Shown one piece after another: positions 3,704 through 40,453 of a stretch of DNA of 64,000 bases. Source of the DNA: Dehalococcoidia bacterium. Lineage in GTDB: Bacteria > Chloroflexota > Dehalococcoidia > SZUA-161 > SpSt-899. The position numbers were made by a program, and so were the translations under genes. The notes under the pieces are model-generated. The model was not told the origin of the DNA. It did not search any database and worked only from the letters and a program-made list of their open reading frames with translations. The stretch covers positions 1,704 through 65,703 of the forward strand of contig JAQTRE010000002.1 of NCBI GenBank assembly GCA_028711995.1. Reading direction: 5' to 3'. Position 1 is the stretch's first letter, and each line of letters begins with the position of its first letter.

Positions 3704-3715
3704 GGTTCTTCCTCG

Positions 3716-4891: not shown

Positions 4892-4902
4892 AAATTAAAA
4901 AC

Positions 4903-5460: not shown

Positions 5461-5480
5461 GCGATGTATTCTTGCACAGT

Positions 5481-5618: not shown

Positions 5619-5644
5619 TTCTCTTGTCCTTAAATACGTAGCGT

Positions 5645-5674: not shown

Positions 5675-5703
5675 CCAATGAGAACTCAGTTCTTCATCAG
5701 TCT

Positions 5704-7695
<1,992 letters not shown>

Positions 7696-17347: not shown

Positions 17348-17920
17348 ATGTTAACAACAGCGCAGAACGCCCCCAACGGAAAATACGCCATTGACGATCC
17401 CGAGATCTTCGCGGGAGATATGGAGATATACATTGCTCCGCCTTTTGACAATGCTCATGTAATAAACATCATGAGACAGATGAAGAAGCATAAATGCAGA
17501 TTTCAATACTCCAGCGGCTCGCACCGGGATGGTTGCTTGATCGCCGTTTATCTCGATGAGCCACAAGCCATGGTCAGTATTCTAGCCGATACCCCTGGCA
17601 TCAACGATGTCCGGATAACTCCGGTACTGGAATCTAAATTCGAACAGTCTCACGGGCAATCCCGGCAGTTGCTTATGTCTGGAAGAATGAATGTTCATCG
17701 GATAACGGTCACTGTGGAACCCCGCAAGGTAAGGGCCGTGGAAGGCGGGCGAGAAGGCATCGCCGACGGCCAAAATGTGAAGAGCCCCGCTCACAAGGCC
17801 AACGAGACAGGCATCTTTAATCCGGAAAGATCAACGGATAGTTACTCTCGACGTGTCACCTTTGATGCCCGAGGAGGAGCGTTCGGGGCAAGGGCGAATG
17901 CGATACCACGCATCGTTTAG
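17348..17920 (+). CDS. Hypothetical protein (190 aa) directly upstream of pilT
   Basis: A good RBS (aaggaga) precedes the ATG at 17348. There is no recognisable domain, and the C-terminal half is Arg/Gly-rich and of low complexity. Confidence 0.4.
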   Translation: MLTTAQNAPNGKYAIDDPEIFAGDMEIYIAPPFDNAHVINIMRQMKKHKCRFQYSSGSHRDGCLIAVYLDEPQAMVSILADTPGINDVRITPVLESKFEQSHGQSRQLLMSGRMNVHRITVTVEPRKVRAVEGGREGIADGQNVKSPAHKANETGIFNPERSTDSYSRRVTFDARGGAFGARANAIPRIV

Positions 17921-17967
17921 TGAAGCAGTGTTTGGCTTTTTCAATTCTGTTTCTCAGGGAGGGAAAA

Positions 17968-19059
17968 ATGGAAATCAATGAACTACTGCGTTTGGCGGAT
18001 CAGAAGAATGCCTCAGACCTTCACCTCATGGTCGGAGTCCGTCCGGCGCTGAGGGTCGACGGACAGTTGATAAATATTCAATGTGAGCCGATTACTCCTG
18101 CTGAGCTGATACAGGCTTTCAATTCGGTGACAGATGAGAATCAGCAGAGCACATTCTCTCGCGATTTGGAGCTGGATTTTGCCTATACTGTCCCACATGG
18201 ATCTCGCTTCCGGGCTAATGCTTGCCGGCAGAAGGGAACCATCAGCCTCGTCTTCCGACACCTAGAGTCACCCCCAATCAACATCGAGGCTATCGGTTTG
18301 CCCCTGGTCTGCAGGGACCTGGCCCTCAAACCGAATGGATTGGTGTTGGTAACCGGACCCTCGGGATGCGGCAAATCGACCACGTTAGCAGCAATGATAC
18401 AGCACTTGAATCAAACCAGGGAACGACGAGTTATCACCATTGAGGACCCCATCGAGTATGTTTACGCCAGCGATCGGTGCATGATCTCGCAGCGAGAGGT
18501 GGGATCTGACACCCATTCGTTCGCTCAGGCGCTGAAGCATGTGCTTCGGCAGGACCCGGAAGTCATTCTGGTTGGGGAAATGCGAGATGTTGATACGGCG
18601 ATGATGGTGCTGACGGCCGCGGAGACCGGCCAATTGGTGTTGTCCACGGGGCATGCTTCCAATGCTCCCAGTTCAATTGACAGGATAATTGATCTGTTTC
18701 CCCCGAATCAGCAGATCTTCGCCCAGGCAAGACTGGCCGAGGTGCTTCAAGGAGTATTATCCCAGAGATTGCTGGCTCGTGTGGATGGATCAGGACGAGT
18801 TCCCGCAGTGGAGGTCATGCTGGGAAACCCGGCGGTGAAGAGCCTCATTCGGGAAGGCAAGATACACCAACTAGCCAACGTTATCCGCACCGGTCAGCAA
18901 TTGGGTATGCGGTCTATGGATGAATCTCTGATACACCTTTACGATGCAGGGCTGATAAGCAGAGAGGCGGTATTGACGTACTGTGTGGATTACGGCGAAA
19001 CAGTAAGAATCGTTGGTGAGCCATTGACATCTGGTGTTACCGGGCGATTGCAGCTTTAA
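17968..19059 (+). CDS. pilT: Type IV pilus retraction ATPase PilT. The start is taken at MEINELLRL; the track ORF begins at 17920.
   Basis: Walker A GPTGSGKST-type (here GPSGCGKST), Asp box, Walker B, His box (LVLSTGHA) and the PilT-specific region are all present. An RBS (agggagg) precedes 17968. Confidence 0.85.
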   Translation: MEINELLRLADQKNASDLHLMVGVRPALRVDGQLINIQCEPITPAELIQAFNSVTDENQQSTFSRDLELDFAYTVPHGSRFRANACRQKGTISLVFRHLESPPINIEAIGLPLVCRDLALKPNGLVLVTGPSGCGKSTTLAAMIQHLNQTRERRVITIEDPIEYVYASDRCMISQREVGSDTHSFAQALKHVLRQDPEVILVGEMRDVDTAMMVLTAAETGQLVLSTGHASNAPSSIDRIIDLFPPNQQIFAQARLAEVLQGVLSQRLLARVDGSGRVPAVEVMLGNPAVKSLIREGKIHQLANVIRTGQQLGMRSMDESLIHLYDAGLISREAVLTYCVDYGETVRIVGEPLTSGVTGRLQL

Positions 19060-24544: not shown

Positions 24545-26164
24545 GTGAAAATGGTGGATAAGGTAGGCATGATAAAACTCAGTTTTCAATGGAAGCTGCT
24601 GTCTGTGGGATTGATGAGCATGGTTGCATTTGTGGTATTGTTGCTGGTCGGCGCCGTTCCCGACACAGCTAAGACCACTCTTATGACCATTGGCGGTGCT
24701 TTGGCTGCTGTGTCTCTGATTGCTCTGGTTATTCTCTCGCAATATGCGGGCAAGAATATTAAAGAGTTGGCCAAAACTGCCGATAGGATCAGCCATGGAG
24801 AGTTGGGTTTCAACATTGATCTCAAGTCCAAGGATGAAATAGGAGACCTAGCCACCTCACTGCGGAGTGCCGCCGTATATTTCAAGGAGTTGGCTTCCAC
24901 GGCTGAGAAGGTGGAGGCAGGGGATCTATCTCTGTCATTCACGGCGAAATCCGAGAGAGACGTCCTCGGTAATGCCTTTGCAAACCTGACCAAGTGCTTC
25001 AAAGACATCATCGGCAAAGTGGCCGGTGATGCCAAAGAGATGGATTTAGCTAGTGACCAACTCGCCGCATCGGCCACTCAGGCAGATTCCGCAACGCAAC
25101 AGGTTGCCAGCACCAGTCAGCAGATGGCGAAAGGTGCCAGCGATCAGGCCGCGAGTTGTCAGGAAACAGCCAAGGCGGTAGGTCAATTGACTGAAGTTGT
25201 TGCCCAGATTGCCAAGGGCGCTCAGGAACAGGCCGAGGGAGTCCATAAAGCGACTTCATCCATAGCGGAACTGTCCTCCGGGGCAGATCAGGTAGCGAAG
25301 AATGCCCTTGCTGCTGCCGGGGGATCCAAAGCAGCAACGGAGGCTGCCAACAAGGGTGCGGAACAGGCCAAACAGGCAGTCGAAGGGATGAAACGAGTCA
25401 GAAACAGTGTGGAAGCAGCCTCGCAGAAGGTTTCCGATCTGGGGCAGAAGTCCGAGGCGATCGGCAAAATTGTAGCGGTGATCGATGATATTGCCGCCCA
25501 GACCAATCTTCTGGCGCTGAATGCCGCCATCGAGGCGGCTCGGGCCGGAGAACATGGGCGGGGATTTGCGGTTGTGTCCGATGAAGTCAGGAAGCTGGCA
25601 GAGCGGACGGCCCAGGCCACCAAGGAGATTGCCGATCTCATCAGCAACGTGCAAAAGGGTGTGGGAGAGGCAGTGAAAGCGATGCAAGAGGGGACCAATG
25701 AGGTGAACGGAGGGTACAAACTGACCAGCGAGGCGGGCGAATCTCTGGAAGATATTCTGAAAGCGTCGACGGAAGTCAGTGTGCAAATCGAACAGATATC
25801 GGCTGCGGCCCAGCAGATGAGCGCCTCTGCCAATGAGATGGTAACCATCATCGATAGTGTTGGGAGCGTTACGGAAGAGAACACGGCAGCGGCCGAAGAG
25901 ATGTCCGCGAATGCGCAGCAGGTGAGCAATTTGATCGAAACAGTCGCCGGGGTGGCAGAGGAGAACAGCGCCGCAACCCAGCAGGTGTCGGCTTCCGCCG
26001 AAGAGATGAGTGCTCAGATGCAGGAAGTGGTGGCCTCATCCCAGTCGCTGAAGCAAATGGCTGAAGCGTTCATGATATTGATGTCCCTTTTCGGGAGCAC
26101 TGATGATGAGGGCGACTCACAGGAGACCGAACCTGAGCGTGACAAAGTGCTGGTTGGAGCCTAA
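24545..26164 (+). CDS. Methyl-accepting chemotaxis protein (539 aa: two TM helices with a minimal loop, HAMP, MA signalling domain)
   Basis: The highly conserved MCP signature …[39 protein letters not shown]… is present. Confidence 0.9.
25050..26075 (+). repeat. Paralogous repeat: the MCP1 signalling-domain coding DNA is highly similar to 27625-28655 in MCP2
   Basis: Long stretches are near-identical by eye. For example, 25441-25640 versus 28020-28220 differ only by scattered third-position changes, as do 25790-26070 versus 28370-28650. Confidence 0.8.
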
Positions 26165-26266
26165 GAGAAAGTGCGGAGGGGAGAGGATTGGGGAATGACT
26201 ATGAGTCAGGAGATTGTCCTTACTGCTTATTGCCATTGACCCCAGTATCACCCAAAAGGAGGGCAG

Positions 26267-28741
26267 GTGGGAAAGTTAATTAATCTGAAATGGCGGCCGA
26301 AATTGGGCGCTAAGCTGCAAAGGTTGACAACGCTTAACCTCGGACCGAAGTTGCTTATCGGTTTCCTGGTGGTTGTAGCCATGACCGGGGCTACGGGTTT
26401 TATCGGCATGCGGGGGATTTCTGGTGTAGCTGATGCTTCGCAAAGTGCCGATGAGGCCAATCTGACCGTGCAAAAGGTGCTGGAAATCAGGCAAGCGGAA
26501 AGGGAGTATGTGCAAACTGGGGATGATCGCTATCTTGTCCGGATTGATGCCATATTGGCTGACGCGAAGAATCTCATCGCAACGATGAAGGAATCGTCTG
26601 GAGGAGAGAACCTCGCCCTTCTCAATGTAATGGAGGCCCAGTTTGATAGCTACAGGCAATCAAAAGATGCCTATGCTGGTCTTATGAGCGCAGGAGCTGC
26701 GAAGCAACTTCAAATGGAAGAGGTGTCTGTTGCCGCCCAAAACGAGGTCAAAGATATGACAGGACAGCTGGAAGCACGGGCGCTTAGCGATGTTACCACG
26801 CTGTCAGTCTTCGTGGAGGGATCGTACGACACCAGTTCAATGGACGCTTCCGGAAAACTCAGCGTGCTAAACAGTGCTAACCGCCTCATGCGAAACATCC
26901 AGTATCTCAGAATGGCCGAGAAAGACTATCTGCTTAGCCATGATAAGAACTATTCTGATGAGTTCATGGTGCAGATATGGACTGCGCAGAGTGTGGTGAA
27001 CTATGATCTCGAGGCGAGCGTTGGCGATCTGATCGATCGGGCGCAAGCAGATGCGATCTTAAAGTCTCTGGATGCATATCAAGCTGCATTTGAGGCATAC
27101 GTCGATTTAGATCAGCAGAAAGAGGCTCAACTCTTGGTGATGATAGAAGCCGGAAATGTATTGATCGGCAGTCCGGATAAAGATAGCCAATACTACGGCG
27201 GGGCAGAATTACTGAAGGCAAAGGCTCAAGACGACTCCGAATCTGCCAAGAGTCTAGCCATCATGATGACATTGGCCTTCATAGGCGGCTCGATAATGAT
27301 AGGTATTGTTCTTGCCATCGTCATTTCCCGCTCAATCACCAAAAAGGTCCGGTTGATAGCGGAGAGGGCGGATGAATTTGCCACCGATCTCGAGGGGCTA
27401 TACGGCACCATGCAATCAGCTGCCCAGGGAGATCTCTCCGAGAAAGTTCGGATCAACACACAGGAGATGCCTATAACCTCGCGTGACGAAATCGGCGTTA
27501 CCATGACGTCTCTGAATAGAATGATTGCCAATTTGCACAACACTGGCGATGCCTTCGAAAACATGATGGTCAATCTGCGAGACTTGATTGCCAAGGTAAC
27601 GGACAACTCGACACAGTTGAATGCAGCCAGCGATCAACTTGCTGCATCGTCAACGCAGGTAGGTTCTGCCACCCAACAGGTGGCCAGCACCAGCCAGCAG
27701 ATGGCCACCGGAGCCAGCGATCAGGCTGCAGCCTGCCAGGAAACGGCCAAGGCAGTAGGGCAACTGACCGAGGTTGTCGCACAGATAGCAAATAGCGCTC
27801 AAAAGCAATCGCAGGGAGTTCAGGCGGCAATCACTTCGATCACCGAGTTGTCAACCGGAGCGGAGCAAGTGGCAAGCAGTGCCGCTTTTGCCGCCAGGAC
27901 GGCAAAAGGTGCGGCCGAAGGAGCGCAGAAATTCACGGAGACGTCAAAGCAGGGGGGAGATCGGATGAAACTGATCATGACCGCGGTCGAAACAGCCTCG
28001 CAGAAGGTTTCCGAACTGGGACAGAAGTCCGAGGCGATCGGCAAGATTGTGGCCGTGATCGATGATATCGCCGCCCAAACCAATCTACTGGCGTTAAATG
28101 CAGCCATCGAGGCGGCGCGGGCAGGAGAACATGGTCGGGGATTTGCGGTGGTATCTGATGAAGTAAGAAAACTGGCAGAGCGGACAGCCCAGGCTACCAA
28201 GGAGATTGCCGAGCTGATCAGCTATGCGCAAAGGGGTGTGGCAGAGGCAGTAAAGGCGATGGAAGAAGGCCGGAAAGAGATGAAGGGTAACTATAAAGGG
28301 ATCGCCGAATCCAAAGCATCCCTTCAGACTGTCCTGAATGCAAACTCGGAGCTTGGTGTGCAGATCGAACAGATATCGGCCGCGGCCCAGCAGATGAGCG
28401 CCTCTGCCAATGAAATGGTAACCATCATCGATAGTGTGGGGAAGGTTACGAAAGAGAATACCGCGGCGGCCGAAGAGATGTCGGCCAATGCTCAGCAGGT
28501 GAGCAATCTGATCGAAACAGTTGCCGGAGTGGCTGAGGAGAACAGTGCCGCGACCCAGGAAGTATCGGCTTCCGCCGAAGAGATGAGCGCCCAAATGCAG
28601 GAAGTGGTAGCGTCATCCCAATCACTGAAGCTAATGGCTGAGGAACTCCTGACGAAGGTCTCCGTTTTCAAAACGGGCGGCAACAGATATAGCGATCAGG
28701 GAAATGAGCTTGATCGTGAGAAGGTGTTGGTTAATAGCTAA
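26267..28741 (+). CDS. Methyl-accepting chemotaxis protein (824 aa: ~290-aa periplasmic helical sensor domain, TM, HAMP, MA domain)
   Basis: It has the same MCP signature, and its cytoplasmic domain is near-identical to the upstream MCP. Confidence 0.9.
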
Positions 28742-28859
28742 AGATGATGTGAAGGAAGAGGGACTAAGGAAAAACTCTTTCCCCCCAACTGGGCAGAAAC
28801 TTTGTGATAGCCAATAGAGCGGTGAGTTGACCGGGTGAAACAAGTGGAGGGCAATTGAT

Positions 28860-29363
28860 ATGAGCAGCGATGCAGGGAAGAAGCAGGCTGAGAGACAACT
28901 GGTGATCTTCAGCCTGGCCAATGAATCCTACGGGGTGGATATCGGCACGGTGAATGAAATCATCCGCATACAGGAGATATCAAGGGTGCCCAGAACTCCG
29001 GCATACGTGCAGGGAGTGATCAATCTCAGGGGCAGGGTTATCCCGGTGGTTGACTTGCACAAGGTTTTCGATTTTGCCGACAGAGAGACAACAAAAGAGA
29101 GCCGCATTATCGTGGTGGATATTCTGGAACAACAAGTGGGCATAATGGTTGACGCGGTGACGGAGGTGTTACGCATCTCTGCCGATTCTGTCGAGCCTCC
29201 CTCGTCGATGATTGCTACGGGTGATTCGGATTATCTGCTGGGGATAGCCAAAGTCGGACAGAGGCTGATCACTCTTTTGGACCTGGCAAAGGTGTTCACA
29301 AGAGATCAGGCTGAGAAGCTTGAAGAAGTGGAACTTGCTGCGATCGGCGCCGCCGCAGGGTGA
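28860..29363 (+). CDS. cheW: Chemotaxis coupling protein CheW
   Basis: 167 aa with a CheW-like fold (…FSLANESYGVDIGTVNEIIRI…VINLRGRVIPVVDL…). Confidence 0.9.
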   Translation: MSSDAGKKQAERQLVIFSLANESYGVDIGTVNEIIRIQEISRVPRTPAYVQGVINLRGRVIPVVDLHKVFDFADRETTKESRIIVVDILEQQVGIMVDAVTEVLRISADSVEPPSSMIATGDSDYLLGIAKVGQRLITLLDLAKVFTRDQAEKLEEVELAAIGAAAG

Positions 29364-29543
29364 AACGGCTACGCAGAATTCTAGAGGCCATGCATTGAGA
29401 GAAAGGGGCCTATCTGGTTATCGATAACCATCGATAAGGAAGGAACCCTGAGAATTGCCGAAAAACCGGTCACTGGATTATTGATCGGCTTGAAGCAATG
29501 GTGAATCGTAATCCCTCACTATCGCTTTGTGAGGAGGCTGGGA

Positions 29544-29933
29544 ATGAATCGGAAAGTATTGGTAGTTGACGATGACCCAACTATGCTCAAGACTGTGAAG
29601 GCAATCCTGAGCAGTAATGGCTTTGCGGTGACCACTGCCGCGGGGGGGCAACAGTGTCTTGCGGAGCTGAAAATGGGGTTCAAAGGGGTAATCCTTATGG
29701 ATGTAATGATGCCTGATATGGATGGGTGGGCCACTATCAGAGAGATCGTCAACCGTGGACTTCTGGAGGGAAATGTGATCACCATGTTGACTGCAAAACA
29801 TACTCCAGATACAGAGATGGAAGAGCTTGCCGAGTGCGTTCTGAACTACATCAGAAAGCCGTTTGAACTCCGCGAACTCAATTCAGTTGTGGAGGAATGC
29901 AGTTCTTATTTGGAATCACTGGAGAGTATTTAA
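29544..29933 (+). CDS. Stand-alone response-regulator receiver domain. It looks like the REC half of a split CheB. The start is at MNRKVLVVDDDP; the track ORF begins at 29529.
   Basis: The REC acid pocket DDD is present, along with the phospho-acceptor Asp in the LMDVMMP context and the K near the C-terminus. Its C-terminus overlaps the following methylesterase ORF in another frame. Confidence 0.75.
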   Translation: MNRKVLVVDDDPTMLKTVKAILSSNGFAVTTAAGGQQCLAELKMGFKGVILMDVMMPDMDGWATIREIVNRGLLEGNVITMLTAKHTPDTEMEELAECVLNYIRKPFELRELNSVVEECSSYLESLESI

Positions 29934-29965
29934 CCGGCCGCCTGCTGGCTGATCTAGGAGCAGAA

Positions 29966-30565
29966 GTGGAGTTTTCAAAAAACATCATCATAATCGGTTC
30001 TTCTAGCGGGGGACCTCTGACTTTGAGGAGGGTGTTGGCCAAGTTGCCGGTGCTCGATGCTTCCATCCTCATTGTTCAGCACATGCCCAAGTTTATCAAT
30101 GACACCATCAGAGAGTCTCTGTCACGAATGACGGATATGCGTGTCAGATTAGCAGAGGACAGGGCCATGTTGGAAGACGGGAAAGTCTTTGTCGCTCCCA
30201 GCGAAGTGCATATGGAGATAGAGGATAACCGAAGGATCAGGCTGCGTCAAAGCGAAAGGGTCAACTTTGTGTGCCCGTCGATAGACGTTACGATGCAGTC
30301 TATCAGACACGAACCTGGGTTGTCCACTGTCGGCGTCATTCTAACCGGCATAGGTCGAGATGGAGCACAGGGAATCAGCCATATCAAATGTTTGGGAGGC
30401 ACAACCATCGCACAGGATAGCAGGACATGCGTCGTATACGGTATGCCCAAGGCAGCCGTTGAGACCGGTAACGTGGACTTTGTGCTGACTCCTGAAGAGA
30501 TACGGGAGAAACTTATTGAGCTGGTAAAAGGATCAAGGGGGAAAAATGGTAACGTTAGCAGCTGA
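29966..30565 (+). CDS. CheB-type methylesterase catalytic domain only. A GTG start with an RBS is proposed; the track ORF begins at 29897 and overlaps the REC gene.
   Basis: IIIIGSSSGGPLTLRRVLAKLP…ILIVQHMP… is the CheB_methylest signature with the catalytic Ser-His-Asp. It is in a different frame from the upstream REC ORF. Confidence 0.7.
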   Translation: MEFSKNIIIIGSSSGGPLTLRRVLAKLPVLDASILIVQHMPKFINDTIRESLSRMTDMRVRLAEDRAMLEDGKVFVAPSEVHMEIEDNRRIRLRQSERVNFVCPSIDVTMQSIRHEPGLSTVGVILTGIGRDGAQGISHIKCLGGTTIAQDSRTCVVYGMPKAAVETGNVDFVLTPEEIREKLIELVKGSRGKNGNVSS

Positions 30566-32675
30566 TGTGACACCGGAAGAATTGCAGGTGTTTCTGCAAG
30601 ACACAGATGAACAATTGCAGGTCCTGGATGAAGATATCATCAAGCTGGAGAATGAAGGGGATAACCCGGAGGTGTTGCAGGAGATTTTCCGCGCCGCTCA
30701 TACGATAAAGGGATCCTCCGCCATGGTCGGTTATCACAAGATGGCCGATCTGACTCATGCCATGGAGAGCATACTGGACAAGCTGAGGAAAGGCACGCTA
30801 TCGGTCAATACCCAGATAGCCAATGCTCTTTTGCATAGCCTGGATAGTCTCCGAGTGCTGCGGAATAATCTGACCGCTAAGAAGGAAGAGAATATTGACG
30901 TCGATTCTGTCATTGCGACACTAAAAGAGCTCACCAGCGCTGAAGCGAAGCTCGCACAGGCCGGGAAGTCGGATCAGGAGACGCCCACAGCGGTGAGGAT
31001 ATCCCTGGATAAGAGTGAGTATAAGCGACTTCAGGAATCGCTGGCCTTGAGCCACAGGGTACATCAGATAGAGATGGCAATCAGCAAGGAAAGCCAATGG
31101 GCGGCGGTTCGCTGTCTTCAAGCATTAAACGAGCTGGATGAAAAAGGAATCGTCATTGCATCTAAGCCCTCCCGGAAAGAGATTGAGGCTGAGAAAGTGG
31201 AATCTCAGTTGATATTGATCTTTGCCGGATTGCTGGAGGAAGAAGAAATAAGAGCGCTGCTCTGCACAATATCCGATGTGGAGAATGTAAGAGTTGGTTT
31301 CTACGATCCTGGCGAAGACGGCTGCCCAGGTGAAAAAGCTGTGGAGGATGGGGCCCTTAACGCATTTGATGTAGAGAAGACCGTCAAAACTGATCGCCCG
31401 GCACAATCCCAGTCTTCGGGCGCTCCAGCCGAACGGGCTCCGGTTGAAGCCATTAAAGCAGCTGAGACGGTTCGGATTGATGTGGAACGGCTGGATAGCC
31501 TGATGAACATGATCGGCGAGTTGGTAGTTGCCCGAACCAGGATGAACCAGATCAGCCGGTCGCTGGACCTCAAATATAGAGAGGATGAAGATGTGGTGGC
31601 TCTGAGCAAGACCTTCACCCAGGTCACCAAAGTCATCGATCAGCTTCAACTGGATATCACCGTTGCTCGCATGCTGCCGGTAGGAACAGTGTTCAATCGC
31701 TTCCCTAGGATGGTCAGAGACCTGGCCCAAAAGATGGGGAAAAAGGTTGATTTCATCATCACGGGTCAGGAGACGGGGATTGACCGTTCGGTGATAGAGC
31801 ATATCCGCGACCCGTTGGTGCATTTACTGAGGAATTCGGTCGATCATGGCATCGAGACTTCGGAAAAGCGCGAGGCTGCTGGGAAGCCGGAAAAGGCAAC
31901 CGTTCGGCTTTCAGCAGCTCATGAACAAAATTTCATCATGATCACCGTAGAGGATGACGGCAAGGGAATCGATGGAGCGGTGATCAAAGAGGTTGCTCTC
32001 AAAAAAGGCCTGATAACCGCTGAGGCCGCATCGAGGATGAGTGATGCCGAGGCCATCGATCTCATCTTCGCATCCGGAGTATCAACCGTTGAAAAGGCCA
32101 CCGATGTATCCGGCAGGGGAGTGGGAATGGATATCGTGCGCAAGAATATTGAAGCGTTCAACGGCGTCATTTCTGTGGAGACGAAAGTGGGCCAGGGCAC
32201 CAAGTTTGTATTGAGGTTACCGCTTACCCTGGCAACCATTAATGCGCTGCTGGTTTCCTCTGGCAATACGATTTATGCCATTCCTCTGGTCACCATCAGC
32301 GAAACACTGAGACTCAGCCCGAAAGATATTAAGACGGCTGCTCAAAGGGAGGTGTTCAGCCTCAGGGACAGAGTGGTGCCGTTAATTAGACTGAACGAGG
32401 TATTTGATACGGATATAGAGGAATCCACTGACGCGGAAATGGTTCACATCGTTGTGGCCCGCGTCGGCGAGCGAATGGTGGGACTTTCAGTGGATTCTTT
32501 GATAGAGCCTCAGGAAGTGGTGGTAAAGTCTATGGGCAGCTTCATCGGCAACGTCCACGGCATAGCCGGAGCCACCATTCTTGGCAGCGGAGAAGTGGCA
32601 CTGATATTGGATGTGCCCAGTTTGATAAAGTCTTGCAGCGAATCGATGAAGTTTGGCGGGCAATCCATGAACTAG
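30546..32675 (+). CDS. cheA: Chemotaxis histidine kinase CheA (709 aa: Hpt, dimerisation, HATPase and CheW-like domains)
   Basis: The Hpt phosphorylation site is AAHTIKGSSAMVGY, the HATPase_c G-boxes are present (…GRGVGMDIV…), and the C-terminal CheW-like domain is intact. Confidence 0.9.
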   Translation: MVTLAADVTPEELQVFLQDTDEQLQVLDEDIIKLENEGDNPEVLQEIFRAAHTIKGSSAMVGYHKMADLTHAMESILDKLRKGTLSVNTQIANALLHSLDSLRVLRNNLTAKKEENIDVDSVIATLKELTSAEAKLAQAGKSDQETPTAVRISLDKSEYKRLQESLALSHRVHQIEMAISKESQWAAVRCLQALNELDEKGIVIASKPSRKEIEAEKVESQLILIFAGLLEEEEIRALLCTISDVENVRVGFYDPGEDGCPGEKAVEDGALNAFDVEKTVKTDRPAQSQSSGAPAERAPVEAIKAAETVRIDVERLDSLMNMIGELVVARTRMNQISRSLDLKYREDEDVVALSKTFTQVTKVIDQLQLDITVARMLPVGTVFNRFPRMVRDLAQKMGKKVDFIITGQETGIDRSVIEHIRDPLVHLLRNSVDHGIETSEKREAAGKPEKATVRLSAAHEQNFIMITVEDDGKGIDGAVIKEVALKKGLITAEAASRMSDAEAIDLIFASGVSTVEKATDVSGRGVGMDIVRKNIEAFNGVISVETKVGQGTKFVLRLPLTLATINALLVSSGNTIYAIPLVTISETLRLSPKDIKTAAQREVFSLRDRVVPLIRLNEVFDTDIEESTDAEMVHIVVARVGERMVGLSVDSLIEPQEVVVKSMGSFIGNVHGIAGATILGSGEVALILDVPSLIKSCSESMKFGGQSMN

Positions 32676-32745
32676 CAACGAGAAAAGGCAAGACAGAAGA
32701 CCTGGTAGATATTGATTATGCGCGAACACAGGCACTAATAGGAGG

Positions 32746-33393
32746 GTGAAATTGGAGAAAAGCAGCAAATCAGGACTCAAGGAGATTGATGTAGGGAAAT
32801 GGGCGGAACTCGTCGGGCAAGGAACTCAGAATGCGGTCCATGGCCTATCTGGAATGGTCGGGGTGGAGATTAAGACCGTTGCCCTTGATCTTAAAGTAAT
32901 CCCGGCAGCGAAAGCGGCAGATCTGGTTGGCGGGCCGGAGAATGAAGTGGCATCCATCTATTTGATGATCACCGGCGCAGCAACGGGTCATATTATGCTG
33001 ATCTATTCAAAGGAAGTGGCCTTTGGCCTGGTGGATATGCTGATGGGACAGCAGGTCGGAACCACCAAGGAATTGGGTGAGATGGAATCCTCTGCCCTGG
33101 GTGAGATGGGCAATATCACGGGGTCATTTTTCCTCAATTCAGTAGCCGATAACACCGGTCTGCGTCTGATGCCTTCGATACCAACGGTGATGATCGACAT
33201 GGCCGGATCGATCCTTGATTCAGCCGTAGCCGATGTCCTGCAGGATCATGATGAATTATTCGCCATGGAAGCCATCTTTGCCGTTGGAAATCAAGAGATC
33301 AGCGGAACACTCCTGGTTTTACCAACTGCGGAGTTTATGGAGGTTATGGTAGAGCATAGCAAACTGATCCCTAAGAAGGGGGCACAGTGCTAA
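32746..33393 (+). CDS. cheC: CheY-P phosphatase CheC (the start may be the TTG at ~32752)
   Basis: Two CheC-type repeats with E/N-containing active-site helices (…SALGEMGNITGSFFLNSVAD…). Confidence 0.8.
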   Translation: MKLEKSSKSGLKEIDVGKWAELVGQGTQNAVHGLSGMVGVEIKTVALDLKVIPAAKAADLVGGPENEVASIYLMITGAATGHIMLIYSKEVAFGLVDMLMGQQVGTTKELGEMESSALGEMGNITGSFFLNSVADNTGLRLMPSIPTVMIDMAGSILDSAVADVLQDHDELFAMEAIFAVGNQEISGTLLVLPTAEFMEVMVEHSKLIPKKGAQC

Positions 33394-33881
33394 CACTAAC
33401 TCAAGAAAGCACGGTCGTGGTGAGTTTGGGAGAGATCAAGTTGTCTAAGGATCCGCAAACAGTTTTGACGTGTCTGGGCTTGGGGTCGTGTATCGGCCTT
33501 TGTATGTATGACCCTATTGCCGGTGTGGGAGGAATGGCGCACATTGTTCTGCCATTCAGCAACAATGGGGCTGCGGGCAATGCGAAATTCGCCGATATTG
33601 CCATTCCCCAGCTACTTCAAGCAATGAGAGAACATAATGCCGTGAGATCTCGCCTGATCACAAAACTCGCCGGTGGCGCGCAGATGATCAAGCCGGGAAC
33701 GGCGGATAATTTCAATACGGGGCAGAGGAATATCGAGGCGGTCAAACAGATATTGGCAGACGAGGCCATCAGGGTTTCGGCCGCCGAGGTAGGCGGATCT
33801 CGTGGACGTTCACTTAAGTTATTCGTGGGGACTGGCAAGGTGATGGTGAAATCAGTGGGTTCAACAGATGTGGCACTGTAG
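33387..33881 (+). CDS. cheD: Chemoreceptor glutamine deamidase CheD
   Basis: 164 aa containing …LGLGSCIGLCMYD…, the CheD catalytic Cys region. It overlaps the cheC stop, which is typical of cheC-cheD pairs. Confidence 0.85.
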   Translation: MLTLTQESTVVVSLGEIKLSKDPQTVLTCLGLGSCIGLCMYDPIAGVGGMAHIVLPFSNNGAAGNAKFADIAIPQLLQAMREHNAVRSRLITKLAGGAQMIKPGTADNFNTGQRNIEAVKQILADEAIRVSAAEVGGSRGRSLKLFVGTGKVMVKSVGSTDVAL

Positions 33882-33908
33882 GCCCGAAGAAGGAAACAAG
33901 GAGAATAA

Positions 33909-34268
33909 ATGATGGCGAAAATATTAGTTGTAGATGATGCCCCCTTCATGCGCATGAGGGCCAGTAAATTATTGAGCGAGAATGGATTCCAGGTGATCGA
34001 GGCCGGAAACGGCGCCGAAGCGGTGAAGAAGTACAAAGATGAAAAGCCCGATGCGGTGATGATGGATATCACCATGCCTGAGATGGATGGGTTGCAGGCG
34101 TTGAAGGAGATGAGAAAGCTGGACCCGAATGCTAAGGTGTGCATGGTCACGGCCATGGGACAACAATCTATTGTGTTGGAAGCCATAAGCGCCGGAGCTA
34201 AGGACTTTGTGGTGAAGCCCTTTGATGCCAACCGGGTTCTGGCGACGGTTCAAAAGATGGTGAGCTAG
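33909..34268 (+). CDS. cheY: Chemotaxis response regulator CheY
   Basis: 119 aa single-REC protein with VVDDAPFMR, the phospho-acceptor Asp in the MMDITMPEMDG context, and the K at the KPF motif. Confidence 0.9.
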   Translation: MMAKILVVDDAPFMRMRASKLLSENGFQVIEAGNGAEAVKKYKDEKPDAVMMDITMPEMDGLQALKEMRKLDPNAKVCMVTAMGQQSIVLEAISAGAKDFVVKPFDANRVLATVQKMVS

Positions 34269-34391
34269 GAAACCTGTGATTAAGTGGTGCAGAACACCTC
34301 CTGCCGGGAATCCGGGGGTGCCCAACACTTGATGGCGCTTGCCTAGGGAAGCGCCATCAACACACAGGAATTCTGAAGAAAGGAACCTGCC

Positions 34392-35471
34392 ATGAGCAAT
34401 AGCATTAGCGTGCTGATAGTGGATGATTCTGCCTTTGCCAGGTTTGCTATTTCCAAGCAGATTGGCGCTCATCCGGAGATGAAGGTCATAGGTACTGCTC
34501 GCGATGGGATTGATGCCCTGGAGAAAATCAAGCAATTGAAACCGGATGTGGTGACACTCGATGTGGAAATGCCGAAGATGGATGGCTTGGCGGTACTCAA
34601 ACATGTCATGTCAGAGTATCCCACACCGGTGATCATGCTCAGCAGTCTGACCAGTGAGGGTGCGGAGACAACACTGAAGGCGCTGGATATGGGAGCTGTT
34701 GATTTCTTCCTTAAGCCTTCCTCGGCGGCACCGGCAGGGCTATCGCCCGAAATGGTGAACGATTTGGTAACCAAAATAAGGATGGCTGCCAAAACCGATG
34801 TGTCACGCATGAAGACGATTGCCACCGTCCCGAGAAAAAGTCAGGCGATGGAGAAGAAAGCACGCAAACCTCGTGCCAGTATACAGAATAAAGTGATCGT
34901 TCTCGGGTGCTCAACCGGAGGCCCGCGAGCATTGCACAGGGTGATTCCTTCGCTGCCCGGAGATTTGCCAGCAGCCATGCTGGTAGTGCAACATATGCCG
35001 CCGGGATTCACCAAGTCATTGGCCAATAGGCTGAACGACTTGTCGGAGGTGGAAGTCCGAGAGGCTCAGGAGGGAGATGCCCTCAAGCCCGGTCTGGTAT
35101 TACTAGCTCCCGGCGGCAGCCATATGACGGTGAATGAAGGTGGCCGGGTGAGCCTCAATCAGGGCCCGATGGAGTGTGGGCTGCGGCCTGCAGCCAATGT
35201 GACCATGGAGTCGGTGGCTAAGGCTTATCAAAAGACTGCTCTCGGTGTAGTGCTCACCGGCATGGGAAATGATGGTACCAGGGGGGCGGGTCTCATTAAA
35301 AAGTTCGGCGGTGAAGTGGTGGTGGAGGACGAATCTACCTGTGTGGTCTACGGAATGCCCAAAAGCATTGTTGATGCCGGGTATGCCGACAGAGTTTTGC
35401 CATTATCGCAGATAGCAGGTGAGATCACCAAAAGATGCCATGTAAATCTCGAAATGGCCCTTGAGGTATGA
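34392..35471 (+). CDS. cheB: Protein-glutamate methylesterase CheB (intact REC + methylesterase, 359 aa)
   Basis: An N-terminal REC (LIVDDSAF…LDVEMPKMDG) is followed by a methylesterase domain (…VIVLGCSTGGPRAL…LVVQHMP…). Confidence 0.9.
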   Translation: MSNSISVLIVDDSAFARFAISKQIGAHPEMKVIGTARDGIDALEKIKQLKPDVVTLDVEMPKMDGLAVLKHVMSEYPTPVIMLSSLTSEGAETTLKALDMGAVDFFLKPSSAAPAGLSPEMVNDLVTKIRMAAKTDVSRMKTIATVPRKSQAMEKKARKPRASIQNKVIVLGCSTGGPRALHRVIPSLPGDLPAAMLVVQHMPPGFTKSLANRLNDLSEVEVREAQEGDALKPGLVLLAPGGSHMTVNEGGRVSLNQGPMECGLRPAANVTMESVAKAYQKTALGVVLTGMGNDGTRGAGLIKKFGGEVVVEDESTCVVYGMPKSIVDAGYADRVLPLSQIAGEITKRCHVNLEMALEV

Positions 35472-35474
35472 ACT

Positions 35475-36311
35475 ATGGATGATGTGGAATACGGTTATCT
35501 GAAAAAGAAAGTGCTGGATCTGATTGATATCGATCTGGATAGCTATAAGGAAAAACAGATGCGTCGGCGGTTGGCCGGATTTCTGGAGCGATCCGGTGCC
35601 CCCAACCCCGCAGCCTACGTCAGCCGCGTCGAGCAGGATCAGCGGATGTTGGATGAATTACGGGATTTCCTGACGATAAACGTGTCCTCATTCTTCCGTG
35701 ACGAAACGCAGTTTGAGAAGCTCCAGACAACGATACTGCCTGAATTGCTGGGCCACAGCCACCGTCTCAATATCTGGAGTGCCGGCTGTTCCAATGGCTC
35801 TGAGCCCTATACAATGGCCATGATTCTAGGCGAACTCGCTGCCAAGCAGGAACACCGGATACTCGCTACGGATATAGATAAGACCATCATCGCGCGGGCG
35901 CAAGGCGGTGGGCCTTACACCGCAGCTGACGTTAAAACCGTGCCGCCAAACCTTCGGGACAGATACTTCAAGGAATCGGCAGGCGCCTATTGGGTGGTTG
36001 ATAGTATCAAGAAGAAGGTAGAGTTCAGGCAACATAACTTGCTGGCCGATCCATATGAAAATGGTTTCGACCTAATTCTGTGCCGCAATGTGATGATCTA
36101 TTTTACAGACGGAGCCAAGGATAAGATCATCACGCGATTCTCGAACTCACTGAAAGATCAAGGAGTTCTGTTCCTCGGAGGGAGCGAAATCGTCTTCCGC
36201 CCGGCAGAGATGGGGCTTAAGACTTTGTCCCCCTCCCTCTATCGTAAGACAATGATCTCTGGCAGCACTGGTGGCCAGTCTTTCTGGGGGCAGAAAACCT
36301 TTAAAGAATAA
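35475..36311 (+). CDS. cheR: Chemotaxis protein methyltransferase CheR
   Basis: A CheR N-terminal helical domain is followed by a SAM-MTase domain (…TINVSSFFRD…NIWSAGCSNGSEPYTMAMIL…). Confidence 0.9.
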   Translation: MDDVEYGYLKKKVLDLIDIDLDSYKEKQMRRRLAGFLERSGAPNPAAYVSRVEQDQRMLDELRDFLTINVSSFFRDETQFEKLQTTILPELLGHSHRLNIWSAGCSNGSEPYTMAMILGELAAKQEHRILATDIDKTIIARAQGGGPYTAADVKTVPPNLRDRYFKESAGAYWVVDSIKKKVEFRQHNLLADPYENGFDLILCRNVMIYFTDGAKDKIITRFSNSLKDQGVLFLGGSEIVFRPAEMGLKTLSPSLYRKTMISGSTGGQSFWGQKTFKE

Positions 36312-36334: not shown

Positions 36335-37435
36335 ATGCGTCGCATATCGGTTAAATACGCTCAACCCGAAATGGAGCTGGCAAAGCCTCTTTTTGATAAA
36401 TGGGGCAATATGCTGTTACCCATTGGCGCCAAACTGACGGAACGACAGCTGCGGTTATTGCCGAACAAGGGTGTAAGGGAATTATCCATTGAAGACTCGC
36501 GAGTCGATGATGTGCTTTGGGACCCACTTATAAAGCCGGAGACGCAGCAAGAAGCAGTCAAGGCAATCAGCGATCTGTTGACCATAAACCAGAAGGGTGG
36601 AGGGATCAAAAGTCCCAAGGACCCGAGAATGGTCTCCGCTCGACTGAACATCGAGAAAATGAGCTATATGATCACGCAAGAGGTTTTGACATCAGTTATG
36701 GGGGAGCCGGATCTCTCTGGCTGTCAATCCATCGAAGATTATCATTGCATTCAACCTGTGCAATCTACCATCCTGGCAGTGATGCTGGCAAAGGAGGCCG
36801 GCTTCAACGAAGGGGATATGCTGAGCGTGGCCAAAGCCGCCATGCTGCAGAACATTGGTTATACCTTTCTGCCTCAGGAGATATTGAGAAAAGAAACGGA
36901 GCTATCACCAGAGGAGACTCTGGAATTTGAAAAACATCCCATATATGGTGCTGAAATCCTCCGTCAGACCGGCCAGACTTCTCCTCAGATCATCGAAGCA
37001 GTACTGCAACATGAGGAACGGTGGAACGGGAGTGGTTATCCTAACAAGATAAGGGGCTGGGATATATCCCCATTTGCCCAGATTATAGGGATTGCACATA
37101 CCTACTACGATCTTGTGTCGGCGAGACCATGGAGGGAGCCATTCAAGCAAATGGATGCGTTTGAGTACATCATGGCATACGGGGGAGAGCTTTTCGATCC
37201 GGAATGGGTGCAGGTCTTCTCGCGTCGCGTTCCCATCTACCCCAGCGGGGTGAAGGTGAAATTGAGCACAGGGGAGATCGGAATCATTTCTGATGCCAAC
37301 CTCGGACATATCGGCAGACCGATGGTGCGGATCATCTCTGATAGTAAAGGCAATGATGTCAGCCGCCCATACGATATGGACCTCTCGAAGCCAAGTTATC
37401 AGGATCGACTGGTTATAGAACTCTTAGAGATTTGA
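36335..37435 (+). CDS. DUF3391-like N-terminal domain + HD-GYP-like domain with a degenerate HD dyad (366 aa), paralog 1
   Basis: The N-terminus MRRISVKYAQPEMELAKPLFDKWGNMLLPIGAKLTERQL fits the DUF3391 pattern that commonly precedes HD-GYP domains. The core has …YHCIQPVQSTILAVMLAKEAG… and KAAMLQNIGY where active enzymes have AALLHDIGK. The GYP motif is retained (HEERWNGSGYP). A C-terminal extension of about 100 aa follows. Confidence 0.7.
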   Translation: MRRISVKYAQPEMELAKPLFDKWGNMLLPIGAKLTERQLRLLPNKGVRELSIEDSRVDDVLWDPLIKPETQQEAVKAISDLLTINQKGGGIKSPKDPRMVSARLNIEKMSYMITQEVLTSVMGEPDLSGCQSIEDYHCIQPVQSTILAVMLAKEAGFNEGDMLSVAKAAMLQNIGYTFLPQEILRKETELSPEETLEFEKHPIYGAEILRQTGQTSPQIIEAVLQHEERWNGSGYPNKIRGWDISPFAQIIGIAHTYYDLVSARPWREPFKQMDAFEYIMAYGGELFDPEWVQVFSRRVPIYPSGVKVKLSTGEIGIISDANLGHIGRPMVRIISDSKGNDVSRPYDMDLSKPSYQDRLVIELLEI

Positions 37436-37949: not shown

Positions 37950-39056
37950 ATGCGACGCATATCTGTTGAACACGCAAGACCAGGGATGCAACTGAGCAGC
38001 CCGGTCTTTGACAAATATGGGGACATGCTTTTGCCTGCAGGCACGGAGCTGGTGGACAACTACCTGAAGTCTCTGCAGAACAACGGAGTCTGGGAGCTTC
38101 TGATTGAGGACCCGCGAGTCAGCGATCTGACCATCAAGCCTCTGGTAAAGCTGGACATGCAGAAAGAGGCGGTCGAGGCAATGCGCCGATTGATCAACAT
38201 CAATAAGAACAAAAAAGGTGACCGAAGGAAGAATCTGGATGACGATGATATGTTCGCATCGAGGCTGGAAGTAGAGCGATTGACCTATGCCATAGTCCAG
38301 GCGATCCTTATCTCGCCTTTGGGCGAGCCGGACAGCTCAGGGTGTTTACTGGTGGAGGACTTCCATTATGTCCAACCGGTGCAGAGTACTACCCTGGCCA
38401 TTTTGTTGGCGAGGGAGGTCGGTTTGAGCAATACGGCTTTGCTCAATGTGGGAAAAGCAGCCATGCTGCAGAATATCGGCTATATCTGGCTGTCCTCTCC
38501 GCTGTGGGAAAAGAGGACTCCTCTGACTCAGGCGGAAAATACGGAGTTCGAGAAACATCCCCTATACGGAGCTGAGATTCTCGGCCAGTATGAACGCGTT
38601 CCTCCGGCAGTGGTTGAAGCCGTGGCTCAGCATCACGAGCGGTTTGATGGTACAGGTTATCCCAATGGTGTAAAGGGATGGGATGTATCGCCTCTGGCGC
38701 AGCTCATCAGCATAGCCGAGACCTATTATGGGCTTGTTTCCGCCCGGCCAGGGAAAAAACCTATTATGCCAGCGGATGCTTTTGACTATATTATGGCGGA
38801 GGGAGGGCGGATGTTTGACCCGGAGTTGGTAAAGGTATTTGCCAGAAGGGTTCCTATCTATCCCAGTGGTGTGATGGTTAAGTTAAATTCAGGGGAGACC
38901 GGCATCGTTACTAATGTTAATCTGGGACACATTGGCAGACCAGTGGTACGTGTTGTTAAGGATACCAACGGTAAAGACGTGAATCCCCCTATTGATATGG
39001 ACCTCACCACGCCCGTGTATCAGAGCAAGAAAATAACGGAGTTGCTGGAAATATAA
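37950..39056 (+). CDS. DUF3391-like + degenerate HD-GYP-like protein (368 aa), paralog 2
   Basis: It has the same architecture as 36335-37435 and the same substitution KAAMLQNIGY in place of the HD motif, followed by HHERFDGTGYP. The C-terminal extension is conserved. Confidence 0.7.
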   Translation: MRRISVEHARPGMQLSSPVFDKYGDMLLPAGTELVDNYLKSLQNNGVWELLIEDPRVSDLTIKPLVKLDMQKEAVEAMRRLININKNKKGDRRKNLDDDDMFASRLEVERLTYAIVQAILISPLGEPDSSGCLLVEDFHYVQPVQSTTLAILLAREVGLSNTALLNVGKAAMLQNIGYIWLSSPLWEKRTPLTQAENTEFEKHPLYGAEILGQYERVPPAVVEAVAQHHERFDGTGYPNGVKGWDVSPLAQLISIAETYYGLVSARPGKKPIMPADAFDYIMAEGGRMFDPELVKVFARRVPIYPSGVMVKLNSGETGIVTNVNLGHIGRPVVRVVKDTNGKDVNPPIDMDLTTPVYQSKKITELLEI

Positions 39057-39072
39057 CTTTGGGGAATAAACT

Positions 39073-39939
39073 ATGGCCGATGAAGTACTTTCGCAAGCTC
39101 AAATAGATGCCCTGATATCAAGAAGTGCCTCCCAGAAGGGGGCCGACATGTCTCCTGAGATAGAGGCTCTGCTGACGAAGGGCAGTGAAGCTCCCAGTGA
39201 AGGACTGTTTGCCAAAAGGATAGCCGGAAAGCTGGCCCAAAGTGAAGGCTCTAGCGCGGGTGTTCCTGAAAAGGGCCCAGCCGTTGCGGCACCCCCCGCA
39301 CCGAACACGTCCCCTGATAAAGGCGCTTCAAGTCAGCACGGCACGGCATCGGCTGCAAAGCCCGGTCCAAATGTGGCTCCAAATGCTGCATCGTCTAGCC
39401 CCTCGGGTGAAGTAGCGGCGACGAAAGCAGCGCCAAGGCAGATTGAACCGATGGGATCACCTAGGGCAAAAGGCCCTGGCAATGTTGGATCGGGGCAGGT
39501 GATGGCGAATTCAGATACGGAGAAGGCCATAAAGGCTTTGCAATCAGCAACAGATGCTCTGGCAAGGCGTATGGAGAAAGTTGAGTCCATCGCCGCGCGA
39601 GTGAGTCCTCTGGAAAGCGCTGTGGCCAATGGTGCTCAGCAGCCATCGCAACGGCCCGGACAAGACTCGGCAAAGGTTCGGCAAATGGAGATGGAAATAA
39701 AGAGCCTCAGATCGGAAATCCAAAAGATCACGGCGAGTATGCAGAACATCATGAATGTAACCAGGCAAAAGGAGAGCCAGATGAAGACCATCAACAAGGG
39801 GCTTCACAACAGTTTTGGTTACAATATTCGTGAAACTTTTGAATGCGAACATTGCGGTTCTCAGGGGCATGTTGTGGGACTGGTCAAATGCAGCCGGTGT
39901 GATGAAGAGAGTTGGTGGGGATGGTGGCCTCAGGAGTGA
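39073..39939 (+). CDS. Hypothetical protein (288 aa): N-terminal FliM-like CheY-P-binding peptide, Ala/Pro/Ser-rich disordered linker, coiled coil, C-terminal CxxC-x13-CxxC zinc ribbon
   Basis: The N-terminus MADEVLSQAQIDALISR matches the LSQxxIDALL CheY-docking motif of FliM/FliY N-termini. Residues 40-150 are of low complexity. Heptad-like segments are visible (…KSLRSEIQKITASMQNIM…). The C-terminus reads CEHCGSQGHVVGLVKCSRCDEESWWGWW. Confidence 0.55.
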   Translation: MADEVLSQAQIDALISRSASQKGADMSPEIEALLTKGSEAPSEGLFAKRIAGKLAQSEGSSAGVPEKGPAVAAPPAPNTSPDKGASSQHGTASAAKPGPNVAPNAASSSPSGEVAATKAAPRQIEPMGSPRAKGPGNVGSGQVMANSDTEKAIKALQSATDALARRMEKVESIAARVSPLESAVANGAQQPSQRPGQDSAKVRQMEMEIKSLRSEIQKITASMQNIMNVTRQKESQMKTINKGLHNSFGYNIRETFECEHCGSQGHVVGLVKCSRCDEESWWGWWPQE

Positions 39940-40453
39940 TATTTTCTATCGATCGATCTGCTGCTCTTGTTCACTAGATGAGGCGGTAAATCAAGACTTA
40001 TCTCTACAGAAACACAGAAACAATCGCTTGTTTCGGATGTGTCTTTCAATCGGGTCGCCATGAGGGTAGACTCCAATTGGTCGACGGACCGCGTGACTTT
40101 CCCACCGAGAGTTATCAGCGCCAGCCCACTTGAGTTATCCGCTCTCCGGGAAACCACTCGCAAGAACTGCATTCTGCCCATCTTATCCTTCGACGCATGG
40201 TTTCCAATCGCTGCCTCGTCAACCCCCTGTTTCTACCCCTCACAGGCATGGCAAGTATGAAATTGAGACATGGTAGAACCCCTTCCTGAGGCGAGTTTGA
40301 TCTCCCCGTTGTCAGAAATCGGTTCATATGTTAAACTAGACGGCGGTGAATAGCGCGGTAGCTGAATGATGCTGGTATCGAAACAGCCCAATCGCGTGAG
40401 TATCGCTATCAGACGCTTGGTGCGTCGCGAATGAAGGAGGGTATAATTTAGAT

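Follow-up and report, generated by a model that had tools for sequence, protein, structure and literature searches.

What does a chemotaxis pathway act upon when its operon ends in a gene whose product begins with a FliM-type peptide and continues into a helical hairpin and a zinc ribbon? The question is raised by a gene in a stretch of 64,000 nucleotides from a Dehalococcoidia bacterium, referred to here as the window. The genes of the operon follow the order MCP, MCP, CheW, REC, CheB-like, CheA, CheC/X, CheD, CheY, CheB, CheR, HD_5, REC, HD_5 and, finally, the gene under study, whose product we call the adaptor as a working name (Table 1). The CheB-like esterase of the cluster is devoid of a receiver domain. 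The best solved relatives of the CheY encoded at 33909 are the CheY proteins of Pyrococcus horikoshii and Thermotoga maritima (including 4iga), with E about 1e-39, and judged by homology it is a CheY of the ordinary kind found in these two species. Downstream of the adaptor gene there are 514 gene-free nucleotides, followed by a gene for acetyl-CoA synthetase. Since che genes are found upstream, and the spacer and an acetyl-CoA synthetase gene downstream, the adaptor gene closes the che cluster, the position it had been given in the original prediction.

Table 1. Positions in the window of the chemotaxis genes, the HD-GYP-like genes and the parts of the adaptor gene.
Feature	Position	Strand	Description
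Core che genes	24545..36311	+	Two MCPs, CheW, REC and CheB-like, CheA, CheC/X, CheD, CheY, CheB, CheR
CheY, 119 aa	33909..34268	+	Presumed ligand of the peptide once phosphorylated
Second degenerate HD-GYP paralog	36335..37435	+	QN in place of the HD dyad; HEERWNGSGYP
CheY paralog, stand-alone receiver, 147 aa	37456..37899	+	
Degenerate HD-GYP protein, conserved upstream partner	37950..39056	+	HD dyad replaced by QN; HHERFDGTGYP retained
Shine-Dalgarno-like site GGGGA	39061..39065	+	7 nt before the ATG, 5-9 nt past the stop of the preceding HD-GYP-like gene; operonic
Adaptor gene	39073..39939	+	288 aa: FliM-type peptide, linker, helical hairpin, zinc ribbon with WWGWWP
Peptide, residues 5-16, VLSQAQIDALIS	39085..39120	+	Candidate FliM_N-type (EIDAL) phospho-CheY docking peptide, from sequence
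Second short helix, residues 26-36, MSPEIEALLTK	39148..39180	+	Conserved only in the closest subfamily of the window protein
Linker, residues 37-146	39181..39510	+	Hypervariable, low-complexity, A/P/S/G-rich, flexible
Helical hairpin / coiled coil, residues 147-255	39511..39837	+	Helices 147-187, 195-245 and 248-255
Zinc ribbon, residues 256-286	39838..39930	+	F-x-C258-xx-C261-GS...V-x5-C273-xx-C276-x4-WWGWWP, Trp-rich end

The adaptor is identical to the NCBI MAG protein PHV74_00785, a hypothetical protein of a Dehalococcoidia bacterium, and the same open reading frame is also a called gene on an independent public contig. A gap of 16 nt separates its start from the stop codon of the preceding gene. 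The N-terminus, MADEVLSQAQIDALISR, contains the motif VLSQAQIDALI, and the protein ends in the tail SWWGWWPQE, whose WWGWW codons, at 39913-39927, are the sole such site in the window. A scan of the protein against Pfam and NCBIfam returned only sub-threshold coiled-coil noise. The structure was predicted with AlphaFold2 from a 40-sequence alignment. The model contains a helix at residues 8-21 (pLDDT 77-84) and a short helix at 28-36, followed by disorder over most of residues 56-144, with pLDDT <50 at 56-73, 79-114 and 136-144. The long helices 147-187 and 195-245 form a hairpin, and the C-terminal end folds as a small β zinc-ribbon module (residues 256-283), which is predicted with confidence (pLDDT 87-93). 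The two CxxC knuckles of this module are located on β hairpins, as in a C4 zinc ribbon, so that a metal site is predicted from both the sequence and the model. The open reading frame on the forward strand, the linker of about 110 residues, the helical segments and the Trp-rich tail that the original prediction had described are thus all present. It had also recognized the two CxxC pairs, but the x13 spacing it gave them does not stand: the cysteines are C258, C261, C273 and C276, and the spacing is therefore CxxC-x11-CxxC.

The adaptor belongs to a large family. A phmmer search of 1.84 billion cluster representatives found at least 304 relatives at E<=1e-3, 68 of them at E<=1e-10, and a word-indexed search returned only three; no Pfam or NCBIfam model covering the family was found. 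Among the best 152 representatives, a stringent profile score assigns the N-terminal peptide to 81, and these are typically proteins of ~200 aa composed of the peptide, a variable linker, two helices, the zinc ribbon and the WWGWWP end. In another 17 the peptide is replaced by an N-terminal transmembrane helix, usually with an acidic tail after WWGWW, and 54 have neither peptide nor transmembrane helix, ~30 of these being shorter than 145 aa and either fragment-like or short forms. The existence of transmembrane and peptide-less members implies a role of the C-terminal module that is independent of CheY. The WWGWWP end often runs on into lysines; where the genome also encodes a paralog anchored by a transmembrane helix, an acidic tail follows instead. 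A scan for the WWGWW signature in one genome per species, covering 185,579 bacterial and archaeal species, yielded 39 confirmed loci, all in Chloroflexota and nearly all in Dehalococcoidia or Dehalococcoidales; the same scan of these species-representative genomes found no archaeal locus. The family is undescribed, lineage-specific and restricted to Dehalococcoidia.

Conservation is concentrated at the two ends of the protein. In the alignment of 40 sequences, M1, L6, S7, Q8, I11 and D12 at the N-terminus and Y250, F256, C258, C261, V267, C273, C276, W281, W282, G283, W284, W285 and P286 at the C-terminus show no or almost no variation. The four cysteines are invariant in 40 of 40 sequences, G283 and W285 are also invariant, and W281, W282, W284 and P286 are nearly so. 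Between these ends no conservation was found in the alignment, the linker being unalignable and variable in length. Conserved ends around an unalignable middle are characteristic of a folded module to which a short linear motif is tethered and, judged from this alignment, the peptide is kept by strong selection while the linker varies freely.

The FliM_N peptide docks phospho-CheY, as established from FliM_N-CheY complexes. A 22-column profile built from 42 family N-termini was compared with 177,635 distinct PDB sequences and gave one significant match (E=1.1e-4), residues 1-16 of FliM (MGDSILSQAEIDALLN), which align to positions 1-16 of the profile; the next PDB match has an E of 0.29. A phmmer search of the PDB with the first 44 residues of the adaptor, a single-sequence query, returned no match. 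The assignment of a FliM-type N-terminal peptide, made originally by eye, is thus borne out at the level of the family profile, which matches FliM_N only. The motif is located at the extreme N-terminus, the same place as in FliM, and it is found within the first 40 residues in 34 of the 38 family genes without a transmembrane helix, against none of the 623 other open reading frames of at least 80 aa in the same loci. From these similarities, CheY-P probably docks on the N-terminal peptide of the family. A second EIDAL-like motif, LSPEIEALL at residues 26-35, scores -3.7 with the peptide profile, that is, it does not match, and for this reason a tandem docking site considered there was dropped and is not claimed.

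The surroundings of the family genes were compared across the 39 loci of the genome scan and the loci of the closest homologs, using a crude open reading frame finder with BLAST labels from the che proteins of the window, cross-checked where precomputed gene calls existed. In about 30 of the 34 loci with a called family gene, CheY-CheB-CheR are followed by one or two HD_5 genes and then by the family gene, and independent precomputed gene calls with Pfam labels give the same order. Degenerate HD-GYP genes, to which attention had been drawn at the outset, adjoin the family gene in essentially all loci. The metal-binding HD dyad of these che-linked HD_5 paralogs is replaced in 42 of 42 cases, by QN in 39 and by KD or EN in three, and the HHExxDGxGYP motif is retained, defining a distinct subfamily. 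The AlphaFold2 model of the partner encoded at 37950 (pLDDT 92, pTM 0.90) has extra β-rich N- and C-terminal domains, and its core matches the HD-GYP domains 4mcw, 3tm8, 9rbz and 4r8z in a Foldseek search (E about 1e-8). The label of degenerate HD-GYP protein that these genes had been given is thus upheld, by motif alignment for the lost dyad and by model and Foldseek for the fold, and the loss of the catalytic site suggests a non-enzymatic role. The partners share the HD-GYP fold with Bd1817 (3tm8), PmGH (4mcw), DvhD (9rbz) and PA4781 (4r8z). Bd1817, however, keeps HD and lacks the tyrosine, as given in its entry title (HDG"Y"P), whereas the window partners have QN and keep GYP, possess their own β-rich domains at both ends and are a fixed part of che operons. 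Just upstream in the window lies the gene for a large GGDEF-HD-GYP sensor of canonical type, with the HD motif LHDIGK.

Other neighbors differ among the close relatives. In most of the closest subfamily (L004, L008, L009, L011/L049, L048 and L021) the family gene is followed by a gene for a conserved 161-aa membrane protein and by the paralog anchored by a transmembrane helix. L010, of the same subfamily, keeps the anchored paralog and has no 161-aa gene; L001 and L002 keep a gene of the 161-aa type, and no anchored paralog was seen there. Both are absent from the window, with no pseudogene trace in the 514-nt spacer. Apart from the archaellum genes described next, no further family recurs in this linkage: in a Pfam scan of the 137 remaining neighbors, the 25 most frequent families listed include none of flagella, CheF, pili or MinD.

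Archaellum genes are found within 10 kb, upstream or downstream, of the family gene in 18 of the 39 loci, and in 11 of the 15 loci that extend for at least 8 kb on both sides. The linked clusters carry ArlB, an ArlCDE-like protein, ArlG, ArlF, ArlH, ArlI and ArlJ. One of them, at L027, illustrates the assignments: an archaellin (Pfam Arch_flagellin, E=3e-16) lies next to the family gene, together with a coiled-coil ArlCDE-like protein, ArlG by a weak NCBIfam match, ArlF by FlaF_Ig-like, an ArlH of the KaiC family, two paralogs of ArlI (629 bits with the NCBIfam model archaellum flagellar ATPase motor FlaI, whose cutoff is 550) and ArlJ (NCBIfam, E=2e-118); Pfam also finds T2SSE and T2SSF in this cluster. 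Matches to an ArlH profile in public data, in the best 120 of 3,400, are labelled FlaH and Dehalococcoidia. No archaellum gene was found in the 64-kb window, and within the closest subfamily none occurs within 10 kb in L001, L004, L009, L011 and L048; only L010 has one. Flagellar genes are absent from the window and none is recurrent in the related loci. The suspicion that this pathway may not control flagella is thus reinforced, both by this absence and by the archaellum clusters beside che genes, and the che pathway of the adaptor family probably does not control flagella.

These observations agree with what has been reported for the phylum. Of 3,780 genomes of Chloroflexota, 243 were reported to carry archaellum clusters, and in these no flagellar genes were ever encountered (Sivabalasarma et al. 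2025; PMC12488501); a transfer from Methanotecta to Dehalococcoidia and Anaerolineae was inferred, and a functional bacterial archaellum was demonstrated (PMC12488501). In archaea, CheY-P binds CheF and CheF binds ArlCDE (PMC7534055, PMC9126983). CheF is absent from archaellated Chloroflexota, for which another, unidentified component linking chemotaxis and the archaellum has been postulated (PMC12488501). None of the papers searched connects the coupling of bacterial archaella with peptides of the FliM type, with zinc ribbons or with HD-GYP proteins.

The adaptor resembles parts of several known CheY partners. With FliM and FliY it shares the motif (LSQxEIDALL) at the extreme N-terminus, the flexible linker that follows it and, presumably, the same ligand face, α4-β5-α5 of CheY-P. 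Unlike FliM, the family has neither a CheC-like middle domain nor a FliN/SpoA C-terminal domain (Pfam and NCBIfam, E<=0.1), and from FliY it has the peptide only, without the CheC-like phosphatase or the FliN domain; the sole NCBIfam trace is a match of FliY residues 2-27 to the family member P0117 (E=0.091). The body of the protein is instead a helical hairpin with a zinc ribbon, in a host lineage that uses archaella and not flagella. With CheF the likeness lies in the proposed role, from CheY-P to the archaellum motor, and in being encoded with che and arl genes. However, no similarity to CheF/DUF439 was detected in sequence (Pfam, NCBIfam) or fold, CheF binds CheY by a folded domain and not by a FliM-type peptide, and the two have separate distributions: CheF is absent from Chloroflexota (PMC12488501) and the adaptor family from archaea in the genome scan. 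CheZ likewise combines a CheY-binding peptide, a flexible linker and a long oligomerizing helical hairpin, but its peptide is C-terminal, whereas that of the family is N-terminal and of the FliM type, and the family has no conserved catalytic Gln/Asp in its helices, carries an additional zinc ribbon and shows no homology to CheZ (Pfam/NCBIfam). The underlying principle, in which an output protein carries a docking peptide for CheY-P, is already known, whereas the adaptor is new in its scaffold, its partners and its probable target.

A mechanism can be proposed in which the CheA encoded upstream would phosphorylate the CheY at 33909, its paralog at 37456 or both, and the peptide would capture the resulting CheY-P. 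The long flexible linker would tether the peptide to the helical hairpin, acting as an oligomerization module, and to the WWGWWP zinc ribbon. This ribbon would anchor the adaptor to its target jointly with the adjacent, catalytically degenerate HD-GYP proteins, and may contact a cytoplasmic archaellum component, the membrane interface or the anchored paralog. At the level of the family the target would most likely be the horizontally acquired archaellum motor, whose rotation would be affected. The exchange of flagella for archaella may then have kept the old docking of CheY on FliM, with the FliM peptide placed on a new scaffold. We hold the chances to be evenly balanced that the adaptor is the output-end adaptor of Dehalococcoidia chemotaxis with the archaellum motor as its family-level target. 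That the family is a non-homologous functional replacement of CheF, linking CheY-P to the archaellum, is given a chance that at best just reaches even, and the chimeric solution as a whole, a FliM peptide grafted onto a new coiled-coil/zinc-ribbon scaffold with degenerate HD-GYP proteins, independently of CheF, a chance slightly short of even. A che operon beside a motility cluster would be expected for any che component, so the adjacency does not single out the adaptor gene, and it counts against the archaellum as target that the constant partner of the family gene is an HD-GYP-like protein and no archaellum protein. Further points against it are the members that lack the peptide, the window without archaellum genes and the scarcity of such genes near its closest relatives.

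This constant partner leads to an alternative in which the adaptor would deliver CheY-P to the degenerate HD-GYP proteins, or the reverse, making the output or an additional input c-di-GMP-linked. The QN-GYP proteins might bind c-di-GMP, the complex serving as a brake or clutch, or the pathway might control a function other than motility. The only partner gene that does not vary across the family is that for the QN-type HD-GYP protein, present once or twice. L001 still keeps a truncated 107-aa N-terminal HD-GYP-like fragment beside the family gene; an intact fold with GYP kept and the HD ligands consistently lost is typical of a receptor and not of an enzyme, and the canonical GGDEF-HD-GYP sensor is encoded nearby. 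We nevertheless regard this alternative as unlikely, although of appreciable probability, since it leaves unexplained both the frequent joining of the che-HD-adaptor module to archaellum clusters and the confinement of the family to the lineage that acquired the archaellum. It would be compatible with the archaellum as target if the HD-GYP-like proteins were co-adaptors at the motor. In the window genome itself, the adaptor could couple CheY-P to a type IVa pilus motor, and hence to twitching, instead of an archaellum. The gene at 17920-19059, 5 kb upstream of the che cluster, encodes an ATPase that exceeds the NCBIfam cutoff for the PilT/PilU family, which makes a type IV pilus an alternative output in a window without archaellum genes, and some Chloroflexota encode T4aP or Tad pili (PMC12488501). 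A divergently oriented sensor gene separates the PilT gene from the che operon, however, and the other 39 loci show nothing PilT-like close to the family gene, their T2SSE matches all being ArlI in arl clusters, so that this coupling is given a small probability.

The remaining alternatives concern the protein rather than its target. The peptide-linker-hairpin topology of the model resembles that of CheZ, and by analogy the adaptor might be a CheZ-like phosphatase or a phosphate sink, with the hairpin bundle dephosphorylating the captured CheY-P; the helices, however, have no conserved polar or catalytic residue in the 40-sequence alignment, which leaves this possibility a slim chance. The peptide could also have a different ligand. 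FlhG has been reported to bind the EIDAL motif of FliM and FliY. The motif name is in use (PMC12826062), and MinD-like proteins have been discussed for archaellum positioning (PMC12488501). An EIDAL-type peptide that recruited a MinD/FlhG-type ATPase, and not CheY, would give the adaptor a part in placing or assembling the machinery of motility or chemosensing. Genes for MinD/FlhG do not recur in linkage with the family, however, and the family genes lie within che operons, beside those for CheY; we consider this very improbable. Finally, the N-terminal peptide, taken by itself, would fit a remnant or fragment of FliM or FliY in a flagellated organism. A full-length architecture with its own C-terminal domain is conserved in hundreds of sequences, no FliM, CheC-like or SpoA/FliN domain is present, and flagellar genes are absent from the window and not recurrent in the related loci; the possibility of a FliM/FliY fragment accompanying a flagellar regulon, raised at the outset, is thereby effectively ruled out.

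The original reading of the gene as a CheY-P-binding adaptor or output protein is thus supported, the binding being predicted from sequence, and is extended to a whole lineage-specific family with a connection to the archaellum. A new protein family without a Pfam or NCBIfam model has been defined, together with a conserved class of non-catalytic HD-GYP partners. Even if the archaellum link were wrong, CheY-P would still have in this family a target of a new type, distinct from the flagellar switch. How bacterial chemotaxis controls an archaellum derived from archaea is a stated open question, with CheF absent and no adaptor known (PMC12488501), and the family is a strong candidate for the chemotaxis-archaellum link in archaellated Dehalococcoidia: a concrete, testable one, with a recognizable docking motif, a defined neighborhood and hundreds of homologs. 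If the archaellum reading is true, the HD-GYP partners hint at an input of c-di-GMP at the archaellum, and the transplantation of a short linear motif would have rewired a chemotaxis pathway to a non-homologous motor after gene transfer between domains of life.

The degenerate HD-GYP-like genes linked to the che cluster form one subfamily. In the set compared, which comprised the two genes in the window and 40 homologues in loci L004-L046 (n = 42), the HD dyad is replaced by QN in 39 proteins and by KD or EN in the remaining three, with the GYP motif kept. More distant proteobacterial homologues contain an N-terminal DUF3391 domain. At L001, which carries the closest homologue of the adaptor, the HD-GYP-like protein encoded beside the adaptor gene consists of a 107-aa N-terminal fragment only: the protein is either truncated here or an N-domain that occurs on its own. 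A canonical HD-GYP domain, with the motif LHDIGK, is found in the 1476-residue sensor encoded immediately upstream of the che cluster and transcribed divergently from it; the presence of this GGDEF/HD-GYP protein suggests that c-di-GMP signalling takes place close to the degenerate genes.

About 5 kb separate the PilT/PilU-family ATPase gene from the che cluster downstream of it. With a score of 420 bits, its product exceeds the NCBIfam cutoff of 319, and this type IVa pilus ATPase may serve the window's genome as an alternative output for motility. The ORF preceding it has no family match. Within the che cluster, the stand-alone receiver and the receiver-less CheB methylesterase ORFs share 37 nt, which they read in different frames, and the pair constitutes a second cheB, either split or frameshifted, in addition to the intact one. 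Finally, the genes at the left end of the window, among them jag, yidC and gyrB, point to a position near the chromosomal replication origin region for that end.

Features of the window and of related loci carrying adaptor-family genes
Feature	Locus	Positions	Strand
jag (KhpB-like), yidC, gyrB	Window	1-7611	
190-aa ORF and PilT/PilU-family type IVa pilus ATPase (379 aa)	Window	17348-19059	+
Sensor, 1476 aa (dCache, HAMP, GAF, PAS, GGDEF, HD-GYP)	Window	19087-23517	-
Stand-alone receiver ORF, 134 aa	Window	29529-29933	+
CheB methylesterase ORF without receiver, 222 aa	Window	29897-30565	+
Intact cheB	Window	34392-35471	
che-linked HD-GYP-like genes	Window	36335-37435, 37950-39056	
Second short helix of the adaptor, residues 26-36	Window	39148-39180	
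Gene-free stretch between adaptor gene and acs, 514 nt	Window	39940-40453	
HD-GYP-like fragment	L001	5360-5683	
161-aa protein and TM paralog genes	L004	9352-10531	
	L048	13130-14753	
	L008, L009, L010 (TM paralog only), L011/L049, L021		
Tandem ArlI (FlaI) ATPase paralogs, two per archaellum cluster	L027	13158-16646	
	L026	12705-16219	
	L029	3087-6337	

The second short helix of the adaptor, LSPE(I/V/M)EALLT, is kept solely among its closest relatives. Despite its resemblance to a degenerate docking-motif repeat, it fails to score with the profile of adaptor-family N-termini. Two genes come after the adaptor gene in this closest subfamily: a conserved one for a 161-aa single-TM protein (absent in L010) and one for an adaptor paralog, in which an N-terminal TM helix replaces the CheY peptide and an acidic tail follows WWGWW. 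Both are absent from the window, where the spacer between the adaptor gene and acs contains no terminator-like site, matches nothing in Rfam and retains no trace of the genes occupying the same position in related loci.

The two tandem ArlI paralogs of the archaellum clusters share about 56% identity. In many loci of the L031-L046 group, three genes, one for a CheY-like receiver and the other two for regulators that contain a receiver, are located between the adaptor gene and the archaellin gene arlB, 2-3 genes downstream of the former; together they may make up a two-component unit that regulates archaellum expression.
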